Origin: Escherichia coli | GTDB lineage: Bacteria > Pseudomonadota > Gammaproteobacteria > Enterobacterales > Enterobacteriaceae | Strand: one strand, 5' to 3' | DNA length: 64,000 nt | Assembly: GCF_003018255.1 (NCBI RefSeq) | Contig: NZ_CP027440.1 | In this document: piece after piece, positions 21,910-30,664 of the stretch | Layout of the letters: each line of letters starts with the position of its first letter | How positions within the stretch are numbered: position 1 is the stretch's first letter | Program-made: the position numbers and the translations under genes | Notes under the pieces: model-generated | Told to the model about the DNA's origin: nothing | Database searches by the model: none | Seen by the model: only the letters and a program-made list of their open reading frames with translations

Positions 21910-22509
21910 ATGCGTAAACTTTATGCCGCCATTTTGTCCGCAGCCATTTGTCTGGCCGTATCCGGTGCGCCTGCATGGGCGTCTGAACATCAGTCCACGC
22001 TGAGCGCGGGGTATCTTCATGCCCGGACGAACGTTCCCGGCAGTGATGATCTGAACGGGATTAACGTGAAATACCGTTATGAGTTTACGGACACACTGGG
22101 GATGGTGACGTCATTCAGCTATGCAGGAGACAAGAATCGTCAGCTGACCCGTTACAGCGATACCCGCTGGCATGAAGATTCCGTTCGTAACCGCTGGTTC
22201 AGCGTAATGGCGGGGCCGTCTGTGCGCGTGAATGAATGGTTCAGCGCGTATGCGATGGCGGGTGTGGCTTACAGCCGTGTGTCGACTTTTTCCGGGGATT
22301 ATATCCGCGTAACTGACAATAAGGGGAAAACGCACGATGTGCTGACCGGAAGTGATGACGGTCGCCACAGCAACACGTCTCTGGCGTGGGGGGCTGGCGT
22401 GCAGTTTAACCCGACCGAATCCGTGGCCATTGATATTGCTTATGAAGGCTCCGGCAGTGGTGACTGGCGCACTGACGGTTTCATCGTGGGTGTCGGTTAT
22501 AAATTCTGA
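21910..22509 (+). CDS. lom: Lom/Ail/OmpX-family outer-membrane beta-barrel protein (prophage Lom)
   Basis: 199 aa with signal peptide, alternating beta-strand pattern and C-terminal GYKF. Confidence 0.85.
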   Translation: MRKLYAAILSAAICLAVSGAPAWASEHQSTLSAGYLHARTNVPGSDDLNGINVKYRYEFTDTLGMVTSFSYAGDKNRQLTRYSDTRWHEDSVRNRWFSVMAGPSVRVNEWFSAYAMAGVAYSRVSTFSGDYIRVTDNKGKTHDVLTGSDDGRHSNTSLAWGAGVQFNPTESVAIDIAYEGSGSGDWRTDGFIVGVGYKF

Positions 22510-22573
22510 TTAGCCAGGTAACACAGTGTTATGACAGCCCGCCGGTTCAGGCGGGCTTTTTTGTGGGGTGAAT

Positions 22574-25500
22574 ATGGCAGTAAAGATTTCAGGTGTACTG
22601 AAAGACGGTGCAGGTAAACCGGTACAGAACTGTACAATCCAGCTGAAAGCAAAACGTAACAGCACCACGGTGGTGGTGAACACGGTGGCCTCAGAAAATC
22701 CGGATGAAGCCGGGCGTTACAGCATGGACGTTGAGTACGGTCAGTACAGCGTTATTCTGTTGGTGGAAGGATTCCCGCCGTCACATGCCGGGACCATCAC
22801 CGTGTATGAAGATTCCCGACCCGGTACGCTGAATGATTTTCTCGGTGCCATGACGGAGGATGATGCCCGTCCGGAGGCTCTGCGCCGTTTTGAACTGATG
22901 GTGGAAGAGGTGGCGCGTAACGCGTCCGCGGTGGCACAGAACACGGCAGCCGCGAAGAAATCAGCCAGCGATGCCAGCACATCAGCCCGTGAGGCGGCAA
23001 CCCATGCGACTGATGCTGCAGATTCAGCACGTGCAGCCAGCACGTCAGCCGGACAGGCCGCTTCGTCGGCTCAGTCAGCGTCTTCCAGCGCAGGAACGGC
23101 ATCAACAAAGGCCACTGAAGCCTCAAAAAGTGCTGCCGCTGCAGAGTCCTCAAAAAGCGCGGCGGCTACCAGTGCCGGTGCGGCGAAAACGTCAGAAACG
23201 AATGCGGCAGCGTCACAACAATCAGCAGCCACTTCTGCATCCACCGCGACCACGAAAGCGTCAGAAGCTGCCACCTCAGCCCGGGATGCGTCGGCCTCAA
23301 AAGAGGCAGCGAAATCATCAGAAACGAACGCATCATCAAGTGCCAGTAGTGCAGCTTCCTCGGCAACGGCGGCAGGAAATTCCGCGAAGGCCGCAAAAAC
23401 GTCTGAGACGAATGCAGATAACAGCGCACAGGCGGCAGCAGACTCACAAACTGCATCAGCAAACTCCGCGACAGCAGCCAAAAAATCAGAAACCAACGCG
23501 AAAAATAGCGAGGCAGCAGCAAAGAGCAGCGAAACCAACGCTAAAGCCAGCGAAACTAATGCTAAATCCAGTGAAACAAACGCGGCGAAATCTGCGGCGG
23601 ACGCACTTAATTATCGCAACCAGGCGCAAGTAATTGTTGGCGATAATATCGGTCTTGGTGAAGTTGCCATGACCTGCACTGATATCTCTGTTGAGCCATC
23701 AGGTTATATTGGATTTGTCAGGATTTACATCTCAGCGAAAGGTTATCCATCAGTAGCGTCTAGTGCCGGTGATAATCTTATTTCTGGTTATATAGTTAGA
23801 TCAGAAGTGTCAACAAAAAGATATTCCGGTCTATTTGTTGGTTCAGATACAAAATCATTGTATTCGTACATTTACAGCCAAAGTTCTGGCCCGCAATGGA
23901 TACGTCATACCCGCAGAGATGAATTAAGCCGCTTTGGTCAAAATGAATCAACAACTCGTATGTATGGTCCAACTGGTGATCGTTTCTTTGAAATCCATAC
24001 TAACGGGAGTTGGGGAGTTTATGATTCTTCTTCTGGACAATGGTCTCCGTTAGGTTTAGCCCAGGGCGGTACTGGTGGAAGAACTATCGAGCAAGCACGT
24101 GCGAACTTGCGGGTAATGTATGAGCAAAAAGCTGGCCTTGCTAATACTGACCTAAACACCCTTACCGGTGAATATTCTGGTTTCTATCAACAACCAACGA
24201 GCGCTTACGCAACAGAAGAATTAAATTACCCAATCGGTCTGGCGGGCGCTTTAATAGTGCTCCAAACGAGAGCCAACACTGCTTCTTCCTGCGTTCAGGT
24301 GTACTACCCTTATAATAATCCGGGAATTACTTATAGACGAATATATGAAGGAGGAAGCGGTACCTGGTCTGAATGGAAGAGAGATGTATCAACAGAAAGG
24401 GTTGAAGAGGGAAAAGAAACAACTTACGTATATTCTACGTATTCTTCAGGCGCACCACGCTTACAGGTTTCCAAATCTGGTTTGTGGGGTTGTCATAATG
24501 GCACTGGCTGGTTGCCATTAGCTGTTGGGCAAGGAGGTACAGGTGCGACAACAGTAGAAGATGCGCGAAACAACTTAAGTCTTGGCGAAAGTAGCGCAGT
24601 TAAATTTAAAAACCTTACTTTAACCGAAGCGCTCGACACGACATTAGGACTGCTTACAAAAACAGGACGAGACTGGAACACGCAGCATACTGATAACATT
24701 AATAAATTTATACCAATTGCAGGCAGTACAAACGGCCCGGCAGGTTCTATGGTTCTTGGCGGCATTCATGTTCAATTTAGTAAAAATTATGCTGTGCAGT
24801 TCGGAGGCCGCAATTCCGGTTTTTGGGGAAGAACAATTGAAAATGGAACGACGCAGGAATGGAAGAAATTACTAACAGTAGACGATCTCAATTCATCTAC
24901 CGATCTTGCTGTCAGGTCATTAACCACATCTAACCCGGTAAAATCTGGCGGAGGGCGAATTGATGTCCTTGGAAGCACGTCAGACTATAGCAAAATGGAT
25001 TGCTTTGTACGTGGGTTTGATAGCACCGGTAATTCTCTCGCGTGGGCGTTGGGTTCATCAGTCGGCGTAAGTAAGATGCTGTCGCTAAAAAATTTCTTTA
25101 GCGGAGCTGAGATACTGTTAAATGGTAATGACGGCGCGGTTCAACTCAAAACAGGTGCTGTTAACGGGGCTAAAGCGCAGGCGCTCACTATCAACAAGGA
25201 TGAGGTTAACTCAACTGTTGATTTAACTCTTACAAAACAAACAGGGACTGGAAATCGTTTTGTTTTACAGAACTTAGGTAATACAGAACTATCATTTGCC
25301 GCAAAAGTATGGGGATCAAGTGATCGACAAAACGTTTTTGAGGTTGGAACGTCTGCTGCGTATCTGTTTTATGCGCAAAAAACGTCAGCAGGCCAGTTGT
25401 TTGATGTAAATGGCGCTATTAATTGCACAACGCTGAATCAGTCATCAGACCGCGACCTTAAAGACGATATTCTCGTTATCAGCGACGCGACGAAAGCAAT

Positions 25501-25879
25501 CCGTAAAATGAACGGATACACCTACACGCTCAGGGAAAACGGGATGCCTTATGCTGGCGTTATTGCACAGGAAGTAATGGAGGCGATACCAGAAGCTGTG
25601 GGATCGTTTACTCATTACGGTGAAGAGTTGCAGGGACCAACGGTTGACGGCAATGAATTACGTGAAGAAACACGTTATCTGAATGTTGACTACGCCGCCG
25701 TGACGGGGTTACTTGTTCAGGTCGCCCGTGAAACAGATGGTCGCGTTACCGCGCTGGAAGAGGAAAACATAACGCTACGTAAAAATCTGGCAACAGCAGG
25801 CACCCGGATCAGCACTCTGGAAAATCAGGTAAGCGAACTGGTTGCACTTGTCGGGCAGTTAACAGGAAGCGAACATTGA
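22574..25879 (+). CDS. stf: side tail fibre protein (lambda Stf-like N-terminus, Ala/Ser-rich repeat shaft, C-terminal endosialidase-type intramolecular chaperone / peptidase S74-like domain)
   Basis: Start MAVKISGVLKDGAGKPVQNC resembles the lambda Stf N-terminus; long AAxxSxTxA repeat region; C-terminal SDRDLKDD ... coiled-coil tail typical of self-cleaving fibre chaperone domains. Confidence 0.8.
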   Translation: MAVKISGVLKDGAGKPVQNCTIQLKAKRNSTTVVVNTVASENPDEAGRYSMDVEYGQYSVILLVEGFPPSHAGTITVYEDSRPGTLNDFLGAMTEDDARPEALRRFELMVEEVARNASAVAQNTAAAKKSASDASTSAREAATHATDAADSARAASTSAGQAASSAQSASSSAGTASTKATEASKSAAAAESSKSAAATSAGAAKTSETNAAASQQSAATSASTATTKASEAATSARDASASKEAAKSSETNASSSASSAASSATAAGNSAKAAKTSETNADNSAQAAADSQTASANSATAAKKSETNAKNSEAAAKSSETNAKASETNAKSSETNAAKSAADALNYRNQAQVIVGDNIGLGEVAMTCTDISVEPSGYIGFVRIYISAKGYPSVASSAGDNLISGYIVRSEVSTKRYSGLFVGSDTKSLYSYIYSQSSGPQWIRHTRRDELSRFGQNESTTRMYGPTGDRFFEIHTNGSWGVYDSSSGQWSPLGLAQGGTGGRTIEQARANLRVMYEQKAGLANTDLNTLTGEYSGFYQQPTSAYATEELNYPIGLAGALIVLQTRANTASSCVQVYYPYNNPGITYRRIYEGGSGTWSEWKRDVSTERVEEGKETTYVYSTYSSGAPRLQVSKSGLWGCHNGTGWLPLAVGQGGTGATTVEDARNNLSLGESSAVKFKNLTLTEALDTTLGLLTKTGRDWNTQHTDNINKFIPIAGSTNGPAGSMVLGGIHVQFSKNYAVQFGGRNSGFWGRTIENGTTQEWKKLLTVDDLNSSTDLAVRSLTTSNPVKSGGGRIDVLGSTSDYSKMDCFVRGFDSTGNSLAWALGSSVGVSKMLSLKNFFSGAEILLNGNDGAVQLKTGAVNGAKAQALTINKDEVNSTVDLTLTKQTGTGNRFVLQNLGNTELSFAAKVWGSSDRQNVFEVGTSAAYLFYAQKTSAGQLFDVNGAINCTTLNQSSDRDLKDDILVISDATKAIRKMNGYTYTLRENGMPYAGVIAQEVMEAIPEAVGSFTHYGEELQGPTVDGNELREETRYLNVDYAAVTGLLVQVARETDGRVTALEEENITLRKNLATAGTRISTLENQVSELVALVGQLTGSEH

Positions 25880-26086
25880 TATCCTTCAAGCCCTGAAGGA
25901 GGCTGTTCCTGGTACGTTCAGACTGTTGTTGAGCTGGAAATCGCAACGGAGGAAGAAACTTCGTTGCTGGAAGTCTGGAAAAAGTATCGGGTGTTGCTGA
26001 ACCGTGTTGATACATCAACTGCACCTGATGTTGATTGGCCAGCAGCACCGAAGTGTAATTCATTAGAACTCATCACCTGTGAATAA
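25880..26086 (+). pseudogene. orphan 3' remnant of a tail-fibre-assembly (tfa) gene
   Basis: In frame with stf immediately after its stop, no start codon; encodes ...[29 protein letters not shown]..., a Tfa-type C-terminal motif by recollection. Confidence 0.45.
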
Positions 26087-26687
26087 TATCTGTTTTTGAG
26101 TAAGTTAGTAATAATCACTTAAATGTGTTATGAGTTTGTTGAGGCGTGATTTGCAATAGGATAGAGAGTACGATTATGGATTGAGAATAAGAAAGCGCCA
26201 TGAAAGAGTTTCATGGCGAGTACATAAACGTACAAAATATGATGAAAGTAGAGTGGCATAAGCCACTATGTTAACTTATAGCAATAGGGAAGATAAGTAA
26301 ATAATATTTCTTGAGTATAGTGTAAGTCGTTCATTGTAAAGCGTTAATGTTATCTATATTGTTTATCTTAAAATAAGGTGTATAAACCAAACTTTTGAGC
26401 TAAAAGTTTAAAGAGTATTAGTGCAAAAATAATGTTTAATAAGATAATCAATTTGCTTTGTATCTTCATTTCGAAAGATTGCTAAGTAACGTTAATTACC
26501 AAAACGATAGATCAGAATTATCTTAGAGTCAATGACTTTAGGTTTGTTTATAATGTAAATATTTTCTATTTGTTATAAGTTTTCTTAATATAGTCACCCA
26601 TGCAACTTGTTCCGTGTGGAGATTAAAGGTTAAAATTTAATGCGAAGATGGAATTATATTATATTTGTTATAATTAATTTAACCTTA

Positions 26688-26770
26688 ACATCGTTGCTGG
26701 CGGCATGGAAGAAATATCGGGTCTTGCTGATGTCGTGTTGGCACTTCCTTAGTGCCGGATATCGAGTGGC
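26688..26770 (+). pseudogene. second, frameshifted tfa-like C-terminal remnant
   Basis: Encodes ...[10 protein letters not shown] then, after a +1 shift, RVGTSLVPDIEWPAAPIG; a degenerate direct repeat of 25955-26060. Confidence 0.3.
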
Positions 26771-26987
26771 CAGCTGCACCTATAGGGTAAAAATATAGTT
26801 CTATATGGGAGCGCTATTTTTACAATATAAATGCTGAACGGAAGAATCTAACCAGTTACAAAAAACATAGTTATGTAATCCAGTTGCCTGGGCATGCGTG
26901 TGATGTTGATAGCTATTACTGTATCTTCCGTTCACTTACCTTATTGTGAACAGTTATATATAATTTGATCTGCTCTTATTCAGCCTG

Positions 26988-28190
26988 CTAGGCTGCTGTA
27001 AATCTTCGATACTTTCTTAACATAAAGATCATGATTAGAATAATTGAAAGTAAGTAAACAATCCAAATGGTGATATTTCGTTCAATTAAAAAGCTACCAA
27101 TTCCGCCGATCACTGAAGGAATCACCAGAGAAGCGGCCCCCATTAACGCAGATGTGGCACCCAGACTGGTACGTTGGCTGGACATAGTTAGGTAAGTATA
27201 AAGTGATTCGAACATACCTCCGGCAAACATCAAAACAATGAAGAATAATATAAAAACATTGACATGATGAACGAATATTATTAGCGGAGTGCACAATACG
27301 ATAAATGAAGCAATGAGCTTCAGCCATAAACTCAAAATTTGTGGTGCAGACCGCTTCTTAAGTAGTTTACCTGATAGTGCTGCTCCCAGCAGAAGGAATC
27401 CTCCAATAATTGATGAGATAACACCAAATTGCGTAGATGAGTATCCATACTTAACCATCAAAATAAATGGGGAAGCTGTGACATAACAATAAATTAGAGA
27501 GAATGAAAGTCCAAGAGAAAGGCAAGGTAGATAAAATCTTGGTTGCTTACTTATCTCTTTGTACGTAAGAAATGATGATTTTAGTGAATATGTAATCCGT
27601 TTTTTATGACTGAGTGTTTCAGGGAAGTTAAAATAGACATACGTTAATGTTACAACAGAATATCCTAATATCATTAGAAAAATTGCACGCCATCCCCATA
27701 CATCATTAATTATTCCTCCCAGCAGTGGAGAAGCAATAGGCACGACACCTTCAATAGTTATGATAATAGCGTACAGTGTAGCAGCCACTGAACCGCGTGT
27801 TACATCACGAACGGCACTAATTGCTGTAACCAGAGTTATTGATATAGAAAGCCCCTGTATGATGCGTATTGTAAGAAACGTACCCAATCCGGTCGAGAGT
27901 GTGAGGCAATATGTTGTCACACAATAAATAATAGCACCTGAAAGCATAATTCTTCGACGACCAATAGAATCAGATAATGGGCCAAAAATTAGCTGTCCAA
28001 AACCTATACAAAGGGTATAAACCATGATAGACAATTGCATGGACGGGATGTTTTGTCTAAATTCTTTTGCGATGTCAGGAATTGAAGGCAAATAAGTGTC
28101 CACACCTAGAATGCCCATAATAGTCAGCAGCGATAGGCCAATAGTAAAGAAAAGTATATTCTTTCTGTGAATAACAACTTGTGATTTCAT
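26988..28190 (-). CDS. MFS transporter (12-TMS, Bcr/CflA-like drug:H+ antiporter family), AT-rich foreign gene
   Basis: 400 aa, highly hydrophobic, with the MFS signature GPLSDSIGRRR after TM2; GC content visibly far below the flanking DNA. Confidence 0.8.
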   Translation of the reverse strand: MKSQVVIHRKNILFFTIGLSLLTIMGILGVDTYLPSIPDIAKEFRQNIPSMQLSIMVYTLCIGFGQLIFGPLSDSIGRRRIMLSGAIIYCVTTYCLTLSTGLGTFLTIRIIQGLSISITLVTAISAVRDVTRGSVAATLYAIIITIEGVVPIASPLLGGIINDVWGWRAIFLMILGYSVVTLTYVYFNFPETLSHKKRITYSLKSSFLTYKEISKQPRFYLPCLSLGLSFSLIYCYVTASPFILMVKYGYSSTQFGVISSIIGGFLLLGAALSGKLLKKRSAPQILSLWLKLIASFIVLCTPLIIFVHHVNVFILFFIVLMFAGGMFESLYTYLTMSSQRTSLGATSALMGAASLVIPSVIGGIGSFLIERNITIWIVYLLSIILIMIFMLRKYRRFTAA

Positions 28191-28952
28191 TATTTATCAC
28201 CATGAATAAATTAAAAGAATGAAAAAAACTCCATTTAAATGGAAGGAGGTGGATAATTATCGTGTAGGCAATACAACAGAGTTGAAAAGAACTGTCAAAC
28301 TTTTAACTCAAAAAAGTGAGATGTGAATCACAGACATAAAAATCATCTTTTTCAGCCCTATGGTTCAGTTAAATTTGATTGTTATCGTACGAAGGTTTGA
28401 ACGTGTGTGTGCGTATGCGGTATTTTTTCTTGCGAGTGCCGGAGTTATGAGAGCGTTGTATTAACCTTCATAATCTGACCTATTCAATTGATTCCAGTAC
28501 ACCAATGGGTATTTTGGTGTTATGGTATGTGACTCCAAATAAAATGGAGCGTGAACTGATAGTTGTGCGAACAAAAGTCGGACTAGAAACCGCTCGGGTA
28601 CAGTGGCGAATTGGAGTTGGCGACCCAAACTGACCTAGGAACAATCGTTGCAGATCGGACGATTAATTTCATCAGAAATTCCTCGCTAAAAGGTGGCTAT
28701 CACTGTGATGTTAACGTATCTAATTTGTACAAGAAATTTCTGCGGGGGAAAATGAAACCGCAGACTCGTTGTATGCAAAAACGTGCTGCGGCTAACTGGT
28801 GAACTTTCGATAGTGCGGGTATTGAATGATTTCTAGGCGTTATCGATTTTACGTATTTTTTGCATGATAGAATTCGTACCTCCTCCCAACGACCTTCCAT
28901 GGCTTTCCGGACTTCTGTAGGCCGGCGGACGATGCTGTCCTCGGATGTTGTG

Positions 28953-29810
28953 CTAATTGGGTGATAACAGATCCTGTGTATGGGAGTTTCCCTTTGTGCG
29001 TGCGTTGATGCTGGTAACGGTAAACGTCATGATGAACACGACCGCGAATAAGACGACAATCGTCGGAGCTGGTGCGCTGTCGATAAAAAAGGACAACCAG
29101 ACACCAGTCATTGACACTATTACCGATATGCCAGTCGCCAGTAGGAGCGCAATATGAAAGCGTTGTGTCAGGAGTACCGCAATGGCGCCAGGCGCTATGA
29201 GCAGAGAAATGGAGAGAATGATACCTACCGCTTTCAGCGTCGCCACAATGGTCAGAGAGACCATGCACAGCAGCCCATAATGCAGCCATCTCGTATGCAA
29301 ACCGCTTACCTGCGCCTGTTGATAATCAAAGCTGAACAGCAAAAAATCCCGCCATTTTACGCTAATAACAAGTGTAACCAGCCCGGCAATAATCATCGTC
29401 TGGATTATATCGCCGATGGTTATCCCGAGCATGTCGCCGAAAAGAATATGGTCAAGATGTACGTCTGGTTTGACTGCAATATACAAGATCAGACCTGCGG
29501 CAAACATGCCAGAAAAAACAATCCCCATCACTGTATCTTGCTTGATTCGGCTGTTGTCTTTCAGGTATCCCGTCGCCACCGCGCAGAATACTCCGGCGAC
29601 GAATGCCCCTGTAGCTAAAGGTAACCCCAGAATCCAGGCAAGCACGATGCCAGGAAAAACTGCATGACTCATCGCGTCACCCATCAGTGCCCAACCTTTC
29701 AGGACCAGAAAGACCGACAGCAGCGCACAGGGTATGGAAACTACCAGTGAAATCAGCAGTGCGTGACTCATAAAGGTGAACTGCAGTGGCTCCAGTAATA
29801 ATGCCATCAT
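28953..29810 (-). CDS. sitD: Mn/Fe ABC transporter permease SitD
   Basis: 285 aa integral membrane permease; last gene of the four-gene operon; overlaps sitC by 4 bp. Confidence 0.9.
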   Translation of the reverse strand: MMALLLEPLQFTFMSHALLISLVVSIPCALLSVFLVLKGWALMGDAMSHAVFPGIVLAWILGLPLATGAFVAGVFCAVATGYLKDNSRIKQDTVMGIVFSGMFAAGLILYIAVKPDVHLDHILFGDMLGITIGDIIQTMIIAGLVTLVISVKWRDFLLFSFDYQQAQVSGLHTRWLHYGLLCMVSLTIVATLKAVGIILSISLLIAPGAIAVLLTQRFHIALLLATGISVIVSMTGVWLSFFIDSAPAPTIVVLFAVVFIMTFTVTSINARTKGNSHTQDLLSPN

Positions 29811-30664
29811 GAGCGATCCTCCAGCGCCTTATGCGCACGCCGACGATTTGCCAAAAGCCCATGGGTGGGCGCAAAGACAAATGCTAAAAGAAACAGCAGT
29901 GTCTGCGCCACCACGATGATTCCACCTGTCGCGCCGTCCAGAAAGTAACTGACCCACGAGCCGAGGAAACTGGTTACACTGCCAATAGTTACAGCAATCA
30001 TGAGCAGGCGGGGAAAACGATCGGTTAACAACCATGCTGTTGCACCGGGAGTCACCACCAGACAGATCACCAGAAAGGCACCAACCGTTTGCAGCGCCGC
30101 AACGGTCGAAACCGACAGCAGGGTGAAGAAGAGGAGTTTTAATCTGCCCGGATGCAATCCAATAGCACGGGCGTGATTCTCGTCGAAAAAGGTCACCATA
30201 AGATCTTTCCATTTGAAAAAAAGCACGATGATCGAGAGAATGCCAATGATAGTGAGTTGCAGGATATCCGCCGGATCGATTGCCAGAATATTGCCCAGGA
30301 CGATGGTCTGAATGTTCACAGATGTCGGGTTCAATGACACCATAAACAGCCCCAGGCCAAAAAAGGATGAGAAGATCAGGCCGATGATGGCATCTTCTTT
30401 TAAGCGGGTGCGTTGGTTAAGAAACAGCATGCTGCCCGCAGCCAGTCCGCCGGAAAAGAAGGCTCCCAGAGAAAACGGAAGCCCCAGCATATATGCTCCC
30501 GCAACACCCGGGACAATAGAGTGCGACAACGCATCGCCAATCAGCGACCAGCCTTTTAGCATCAGATAGCATGACAGGAAAGCGCAGAGACCGCCGACCA
30601 TCGCCGAGACCCACATCGCATTGAGCATATATTCATAGCTGAAGGGTTCCAGTAGCACGTTCAT
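29807..30664 (-). CDS. sitC: Mn/Fe ABC transporter permease SitC
   Basis: 285 aa permease paralogous to SitD; 4-bp overlaps on both sides. Confidence 0.9.

Follow-up and report, generated by a model that had tools for sequence, protein, structure and literature searches.

A decayed pin/gin invertase gene and putative control sequences fill an unannotated segment between an MFS efflux gene and sitD in an Escherichia coli prophage

The pin/gin family of serine DNA invertases (Pfam PF00239 and PF02796) is well known and includes PinE of e14, PinR of Rac and PinQ of Qin. In Pin, Gin and Hin the serine nucleophile lies at about residue 10, within the N-terminal catalytic domain, and the crossover core motif of these invertases reads AAACC-NN-GGTTT with flanks. 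Lambdoid phages such as HK97 and HK022 also carry morons, autonomous cargo genes that have their own promoter and terminator and sit between phage genes. The sitABCD genes are a frequent moron of lambda-like coliphages (PMC6969025). A 5'-truncated pin fragment is already annotated in Salmonella phage FSL SP-016 (KC139516), at the same junction that is described here for E. coli. The window analysed is a whole stretch of 64,000 nucleotides from contig NZ_CP027440.1, to which all positions refer, and the segment under study, 28191-28952, is bounded on one side by the start codon of a minus-strand MFS gene (28190) and on the other by the sitD stop codon (28953). Very probably this segment is made of three parts (A to C) and is not one functional unit: an MFS control region, a pin remnant and a lambdoid spacer. 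We assign a probability of roughly 0.85 to the overall reading, in which a sit terminator, a pin fossil and an MFS promoter stand in series. The segment is an ordinary prophage scar where two minus-strand cargo units adjoin, and the decay of a gene from a well-known family beside control sequences is nothing new in kind. It does close an annotation gap, in that the seemingly 'empty' 760 bp are accounted for by a dead invertase gene and control sequences. The features are as follows.

26988-28190, minus strand: intact Bcr/CflA-family MFS efflux gene, 400 aa (open reading frame and TIGR00710)
28191-28384, minus strand: part A, 5' regulatory region of the MFS gene with candidate promoter, operator and 5' UTR (conservation)
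28231-28242, no strand assigned: perfect palindrome CCATTTAAATGG in the predicted MFS leader/operator region
28270-28298, minus strand: candidate sigma-70 promoter TTGACA-17-TGTATT (read from the sequence, and conservation)
about 28385-28750, plus strand: part B, pseudogene of a pin/gin-family serine DNA invertase (blastn, tblastn, lesions)
28739-28764, plus strand: hairpin TCTGCGG-12 nt-CCGCAGA (fold)
28749-28952, minus strand for 28749-28852 and no strand assigned for the rest: part C, lambdoid spacer (homology)
28749-28791, minus strand: conserved lambdoid hairpin and U-tract (fold, covariation, U-tail)
28792-28852, minus strand: remaining lambdoid element (alignments A3 and A4)
28853-28952, no strand assigned: spacer like the lambda b region, 3' flank of the sit operon (homology)
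28953-29810, minus strand: sitD, last gene of sitABCD (open reading frame and RefSeq annotation of identical genomes)

Followed along the minus strand, the sitABCD transcript would leave sitD, cross the lambda-like spacer of about 100 bp and then about 100 nt of conserved, structured lambdoid sequence, and would most likely end at the hairpin 28791-28758 and its U-tract (to 28749). Next would come about 365 bp of inert pin/gin remnant, lying on the opposite (plus) strand. Where it meets the MFS cassette, pin has lost its first ~58 codons, the catalytic serine included, and what was left went on to decay through frameshifts, stops and GC-to-AT drift. The last ~194 bp would be upstream DNA of the MFS gene with its own candidate promoter (28270-28298), possible operator palindromes and a leader.

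The locus is the right (tail-fibre) end of a Rac/lambda-like prophage. Genomes identical to the window over the segment have the order lambdoid tail genes, stfR, tfa, a tfa fragment, the MFS gene, the gap, sitDCBA, uspF and ompN. The arrangement resembles that of morons, as sitABCD and the MFS gene are placed between tail-fibre genes and the prophage end with a terminator-like hairpin between them, and each of the two cargo units appears to have its own predicted control region. A difference is that the terminator-like hairpin belongs to a pre-existing lambdoid element and is not specific to a moron. The complete 762 bp are found with at least 99% identity in 35 of the 5426 complete E. coli genomes, and in all 35 the RefSeq annotation of the segment is 'none'; E. 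coli AR436 and strain 41 (NZ_CP076285) are examples of strains with the locus. The last ~195 bp alone (28758-28952) occur in another 372 E. coli genomes, every time beside sitD. In these sit loci, which are the commoner kind, the shared 195 bp come right after tfaR or an ea47-like gene. The sequence-only reading had seen no convincing open reading frame but only short overlapping ones, and this is borne out: all open reading frames of the segment are short and overlapping (30-66 aa) and there is no intact gene. A frame of 146 aa at 28849-29289 is spurious, running within sitD in another frame. GC content climbs from 0.32-0.35 (28050-28499) over 0.43-0.45 (28350-28949) to 0.48-0.54 in the sit genes. 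Hence the intermediate GC that had been attributed to the segment, between ~0.33 at the MFS end and ~0.50 in sit, is confirmed, and the proposed boundary between two cargo blocks of different GC is real. Searches for tRNA, tmRNA and tandem repeats found none, and in a plasmid collection the only matches were to pin/hin genes and tfa fragments, so that nothing there is more closely related to the module.

The middle part of the segment, part B, is homologous to the C-terminal two-thirds of PinE at the DNA and the protein level. By sensitive blastn, 28413-28760 matches pinE and genes annotated as 'recombinase family' in about 1900 E. coli genomes with 71-73.5% identity and, against pinE, E values down to 3e-48. 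Such a BLASTN search had been suggested by the sequence-only reading, on whose own terms the clear homology to a known gene fragment that was found speaks against anything more exotic. A tblastn search with K-12 PinE gave three collinear HSPs (residues 70-137, 140-166 and 169-182; combined E = 7e-20), which fall in three different frames. The motif LIVIVRRFER, with frames read from the sequence, aligns with PinE TLVVWKLDR, so that the homology begins at about residue 59 and part B covers PinE residues ~59-182. It thus reaches from the end of the catalytic domain through the E-helix and across the HTH domain, and as for pin of e14 its place is just downstream of tail-fibre and tfa genes. The stitched translation matches Pfam Resolvase positions 67-140 with 17.8 bits, below the cut-off of 23.3, and HTH_7 with 19.2 bits, below the cut-off of 23.8; these sub-threshold matches are confined to the C-terminal two-thirds.

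In contrast to working Pin, Gin, Cin and Hin proteins, part B has neither the catalytic domain nor its serine, and it is interrupted by three in-frame stops (TGA 28448-28450, TAG 28636-28638, TAA 28687-28689) and at least three frameshifts (near 28405-28415, 28615-28621 and 28701-28707). The native pin stop near 28748 is lost through a 1-nt deletion, and in the window copy two stops and two frameshifts interrupt the HTH region. Nothing similar to PinE residues 1-58, which include the catalytic serine, was found upstream of part B, and a local DNA alignment of 28191-28375 with pinE, covering its 5' third and the sequence upstream, scored 21, within the range of shuffled sequences (mean 18, maximum 26), so that no pin N-terminus is hidden there. 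The crossover motif in the form given above, with one mismatch allowed, has no match in the window, and among inverted repeats in the tail-fibre region (22000-29100) only weak ones were found, none of them convincing. Part B is thus devoid of all three marks of a functional invertase, namely a catalytic N-terminus, an open frame and crossover sites. Changes specific to the window copy run from GC to AT in 43 cases and from AT to GC in 15, and the remnant has a GC content of 0.43 vs 0.50 for pinE. Its sequence agrees among 35 independent assemblies. Because significant pin homology and disabling lesions occur together, part B is almost certainly a pin/gin-family pseudogene.

A close relative of the module is found in FSL SP-016, which aligns with window positions 26931-28839 at 81% identity. 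There, the MFS gene is followed by a 5'-truncated pin on the opposite strand ('Gin', annotated as a fragment of 84 aa) and then by msgA (dinI-like) and int, and the IMG/VR locus L011 has the same arrangement. Both share with the window the MFS gene, its upstream region, the junction with a 5'-truncated pin and the lambdoid element that comes after it. They differ in what became of these parts: the pin fragment of SP-016 is uninterrupted and its element is followed by msgA and int, whereas the fragment in the window is heavily decayed and its element is followed by sitDCBA. In SP-016 the fragment corresponds to PinE residues 66-181 with 88% identity, and neither stops nor frameshifts interrupt it within these residues. 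An MFS gene with 84-85% amino acid identity is also found at loci L009 and L010, in islands with a P4-like integrase and without any pin. They are unrelated to the window beyond ~28384, so that the MFS cassette ends and the pin remnant begins there. The pin remnants of the window and SP-016 are 63% identical to each other and each ~73% identical to pinE, and the 4-fold degenerate sites of the MFS gene are 72% identical. From these values a single shared ancestral truncation, followed by decay, is likely for the window and SP-016 but unproven, and one lineage may have undergone gene conversion afterwards. As the truncated 5' end of pin directly adjoins the MFS cassette, insertion of the cassette may well have caused the truncation, and its arrival probably destroyed the tail-fibre inversion switch. 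Loss of the switch would leave a prophage with a single host-range configuration.

The MFS gene itself seems to be maintained by selection. Its product scores 204.5 bits against NCBIfam TIGR00710 (cut-off 200.9) and has 88% amino acid identity to the product of a gene annotated as 'bicyclomycin efflux system' in FSL SP-016; identities by codon position between the two genes are 92/94/76%, which argues for purifying selection. Part A, upstream of it, is 83% identical to SP-016 overall and 98% identical in 28251-28300, compared with 72% at the 4-fold sites of the MFS gene, and it is kept in the pin-less loci L009 and L010 as well. Because its conservation exceeds that of neutral sites, we read part A as promoter and operator DNA, and it is reasonably likely to be the promoter region of the MFS gene. 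The candidate promoter consists of a -35 hexamer TTGACA (28298-28293), a 17-nt spacer that ends in TGn and a -10 hexamer TGTATT (28275-28270), and if it fires as predicted transcription would start at about 28263. All six aligned loci agree in the -35 hexamer, the spacing and the TGn, and their -10 hexamer is TGTATT or TTTATT. TGTATT is weak, and a consensus scan for promoters and terminators called nothing relevant on the minus strand; the candidate was missed because its -10 hexamer has no A at position 2. The predicted leader is ~70 nt long, with GGTGA as its Shine-Dalgarno sequence, 6 nt upstream of the ATG. The palindrome at 28231-28242 reads CTATTTAAATAG in L009 and L010, in which two symmetric changes leave the palindrome intact; this is a single event and thus weak evidence for it. 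Upstream of the -35 hexamer lies TGTGAATCACA (28322-28332). A structured leader or attenuator was considered and rejected, as the leaders of three homologues fold no better than shuffled sequences (z = 0.26 for the window, 0.49 and -0.63; none significant). By eye, no leader mini-ORF is conserved among the window, SP-016 and L009. An open reading frame of 35 aa on the plus strand (28219-28326) was likewise rejected as a gene, being broken in SP-016 and L009.

The sequence-only reading had pointed to a hairpin, CTGCGG-N12-CCGCAG, near 28745-28770. The hairpin exists, at a slightly different position: CTGCGG at 28740-28745 and, after 12 nt, CCGCAG at 28758-28763, giving 7 bp with the flanking T and A. 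Its fold has -11.7 kcal/mol (z = -2.8; 2 of 200 shuffles fold as well). Neither SP-016 nor pinE nor any of the other loci compared keeps this pairing, and the corresponding sequence of the Salmonella phage reads CTGCGA...CCGCTG. The right arm is at the same time the left arm of a longer, conserved hairpin at 28758-28791. Because of its absence from the relatives, the pairing is fortuitous: the last pin codons happen to pair with the left arm of this longer hairpin. Three options had been offered for the segment: a decayed gene, which is correct for the middle ~365 bp with their pin/gin homology and lesions; the MFS promoter or leader, which conservation supports well for the first ~194 bp only; and a small RNA at this hairpin, which was not upheld, as the pairing is accidental and no Rfam family reaches its threshold. 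That the last ~200 bp form a widespread lambdoid element, with 28758-28791 as the true conserved hairpin, had escaped the sequence-only reading.

From CCGCAG (28758) on, part C aligns with the 3' flank of sitD, with the spacer between tfa and DinI-like genes, with the pin-msgA spacer of SP-016 and with phage lambda between ea47 and ea31. Its portion next to sitD, 28853-28952, matches lambda at ~24.3-24.4 kb and is 87-94% identical in the 372 other sit-positive E. coli genomes, and its fold is not significant (z = 0.82). The portion next to pin belongs to what we call the lambdoid tfa/dinI-junction element, a group defined in this analysis and not a published family. It is defined by the core TTCGATAGTGCGAGTATTGAATGATT and two covarying helices at the tail-fibre end, and all of these are found in the one copy in the window, which can be aligned along the whole of A3 and A4. 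The usual left neighbour of the element is a plus-strand tfa, tail-fibre or pin gene that ends 4-40 nt before the hairpin, and the usual right neighbour is a minus-strand DinI-like gene that ends ~50 nt from the core. On the minus strand of the window the hairpin 28758-28791 (-14.3 kcal/mol, z = -2.1) is followed by UUUCAUUUU (28757-28749); its inner stem has a mismatch and the terminal hairpin is intact. The second helix is formed by 28794-28797 and 28835-28838 and is weakened in the window copy to two Watson-Crick pairs, one G.U and one mismatch. Within it lies the near-invariant core TTCGATAGTGCGGGTATTGAATGATT (28806-28831), with one mismatch to the core TTCGATAGTGCGAGTATTGAATGATT, and GATTTTAC comes after. 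As a side observation, such a structured element of ~100 nt is near-universal in E. coli: copies, 18,602 in all, are present in 5411 of the 5426 complete genomes (median 3, maximum 10), among them one at the end of the Qin prophage of K-12, between ynfT and ydfJ, and one in Rac.

Stem covariation is directly observed among lambdoid copies. We gathered 120 lambdoid contigs by a pattern in the core, which lies outside the terminal hairpin, and a hand-picked set of 51 distinct sequences, from which a few lacking the hairpin were left out, forms the alignment A4. RNAalifold finds two covarying helices in it. Of all cells at paired positions, 95.9% are paired, vs 22-48% in slid controls, and 9 of 19 pairs have double changes; in the first helix, GC-to-AU double changes occur in 16 of the 51 sequences. 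Cells with double changes number 56, vs 17.7 in shuffles (0 of 500 reach 56), a control that ignores relatedness and thus overstates the significance for these related sequences. Two observations favour the minus strand, namely the counts of G.U and A.C in the stems (41 vs 16) and a U-rich tail after the hairpin, which 20 of 51 sequences have on the minus strand and none has on the plus strand. Folding energies of both strands, compared for 97 hairpins, gave no more than a hint (p = 0.07), and the wobble count was the more informative of the two. We therefore consider it somewhat probable, judging from fold and U-tract, that the hairpin 28758-28791 acts as an intrinsic terminator and ends sitABCD transcription. 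The terminator scan missed it because of its 9-nt loop (the limit is 8 nt) and a bulge. In lambda and many Salmonella-type copies the hairpin has no U-tract, so that termination may be neither the only nor the primary role of the element.

A further role is conceivable, in which 28749-28852 is a functional RNA of the minus strand, either a 3'-UTR-derived or stand-alone sRNA or a protein-binding 3' UTR. We hold this only tentatively; it is compatible with the preferred reading of terminator, pin fossil and promoter in series and would add a function to part C. The covariation of two helices speaks for it, as do the wobble asymmetry, the U-tail on the minus strand only, the abundance of the element and its position ~50 nt past the stop codon of a DinI-like gene in many loci. 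Across lambdoid copies the hairpin stems vary widely while the terminal loop (UCUUGCAUA) and the core are near-invariant, but the core was partly fixed by the search pattern and its invariance in A4 is thus inflated. Relatedness weakens the shuffle control in the way described above, and 31 of the 51 copies have no U-tail. Rfam gave one match in its favour, a weak one. The Rfam scan proposed in the sequence-only reading was run, and no family reaches its gathering score on the segment; over 26000-30000 (E <= 1) there were only a partial IS009 match in a tfa fragment and a weak match to a hairpin of CssrB (RF02799), the chromosome-encoded Shigella sRNA B. The 3'-terminal hairpin of that model aligns with 28758-28790, but with 20.2 bits against a gathering score of 76, with 131 central model positions absent, and on the plus strand, opposite to the strand favoured by wobbles and U-tail. 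At gathering score, ten related loci gave full IS009 matches inside tfa genes and none on the element. Literature searches with the core sequence strings or by topic (DinI-like, prophage, sRNA, Hfq) found no paper on the element, those on CssrB only unrelated papers and those on lambda late-operon terminators near tfa and ea47 nothing usable. That 28749-28852 is an undescribed structured RNA of lambdoid prophages, on the strand of dinI and sit, which serves as a 3'-UTR-derived sRNA or as a chaperone/RNase platform, is in our view doubtful on the sequences compared. In such an RNA the second helix would present the near-invariant core of ~30 nt and the loop of the terminator hairpin would be conserved, and cargo genes such as sitABCD would inherit the element by inserting upstream of it. 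If the element is a functional RNA, it would bear on termination and regulation of phage-borne virulence and fitness genes such as sitABCD.

Part C might instead be conserved as DNA, providing homology at a module boundary, where the tail-fibre region ends, for swaps of lambdoid cargo (dinI, sit, MFS, effectors) through homologous recombination, with the hairpin as an ordinary terminator. We regard this as rather unlikely, and it is not mutually exclusive with an RNA role. The neighbours do change at the element, on the left between tfa, pin, pin remnants and ea47 and on the right between dinI-int, sitDCBA and, in K-12 Qin, attR-side genes; there are several copies per genome and the core is highly conserved whatever the neighbours are. 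Recombination homology alone, however, leaves the compensatory pairing changes and the G.U asymmetry unexplained. Very improbable is a third alternative, in which a small RNA or protein from parts A and B regulates MFS or sit, for example from open reading frames on the plus strand (28611-28802, 63 aa) and the minus strand (28700-28900, 66 aa) or as a truncated, HTH-only Pin: such frames exist, a 'Gin' fragment is annotated in SP-016 and the hairpin at 28740-28763 is moderately stable, but the two frames represent the tail of the pin pseudogene, read out of frame, and the antisense of it, cross the covarying stems and are subject to 1-nt indels in relatives, the HTH region and the 35-aa frame of part A are broken as described, and neither an Rfam match nor conservation of the pairing nor a significant leader fold was found.

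In the preferred reading of the segment as terminator, pin fossil and promoter in series, the pin remnant is one of many. In 30 of the 120 viral loci the hairpin directly adjoins an intact pin gene or a pin remnant truncated at its 5' end, and these remnants differ widely in length. This makes the order 'pin 3' end, then hairpin' the ancestral one and shows that erosion of pin from its 5' end recurs. Pin remnants of many lengths mark the tail-fibre end of lambdoid phages as a recurrent site of cargo insertion.

The stretch between the gene for a Bcr/CflA-family MFS efflux pump and sitD contains a non-coding, structured element roughly 100 nt long, which no Rfam family matched at its gathering score and which is carried by 5411 of the 5426 complete E. 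coli genomes (median of 3 copies), by lambda and by the K-12 prophage Qin.

Window 28749-28852, minus strand favoured: the structured element, in which two helices covary and the core is almost invariant
L002:3001-3106, L012 about 2260-2490, L133:2501-2603, and the lambdoid contigs L013-L132, collected by a pattern in the element core: further copies

Wobble pairs and a U-tail point to the minus strand, on which dinI and the sit genes also lie, as the favoured strand. The conserved lambdoid hairpin (28758-28791) lies within this element, and in 30 of the 120 contigs L013-L132 a pin-family invertase gene ends directly at its left flank. About half of these genes are full length, while the others are 5'-truncated to varied lengths, starting at residue 66, 101, 113, 122, 142, 151 or 165 of the K-12 (e14) invertase PinE. 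The varied lengths of these remnants suggest that cargo insertion at this site has eroded pin repeatedly.

The conserved region upstream of the MFS gene holds two perfect palindromes, both candidate operator sites of a regulator.

Window 28231-28242: perfect palindrome CCATTTAAATGG
Window 28322-28332: perfect palindrome TGTGAATCACA

The window's MFS cassette is also present, without pin, in two islands with a P4-like integrase (L009 and L010), where CTATTTAAATAG replaces CCATTTAAATGG, a double change that is symmetric. After the cassette boundary these islands hold a (GTGTTG)n hexanucleotide microsatellite (L009:2640-2834 and L010:2623-2835) that differs in copy number between the two, and a short (GT)4 run is found at the matching junction of the window (28404-28412). 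In E. coli AR436 the segment between the MFS gene and sitD is 100% identical, but the annotation splits the MFS gene (L134:10798-12000, equivalent to window 26988-28190) into two CDS, one for an 'MFS transporter' and one for a 65-aa 'hypothetical protein'. The pump gene is intact in the window, whereas by this annotation it appears disrupted in at least one carrier.

Between the gene for a 1103-aa tail fibre and the MFS gene, window 25880-26987 is very AT-rich (GC 0.26-0.35). Two C-terminal fragments of the tail-fibre-assembly gene tfa, with the motif WKKYRVLL, are more debris from a former tail-fibre switching region.

Window 25964-26086, plus strand: tfa C-terminal fragment
Window 26640-26798, plus strand: tfa C-terminal fragment
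Window 26675-26750, L003:3745-3943, L012:417-615 and L053:2022-2220: matches to Rfam IS009 (RF02111)

Because the IS009 matches fall inside tfa coding sequence, that of lambda orf-194 included, this 'RNA family' is, as judged from match positions, coincident with a protein-coding region. The window match is only partial and lies within a tfa fragment.
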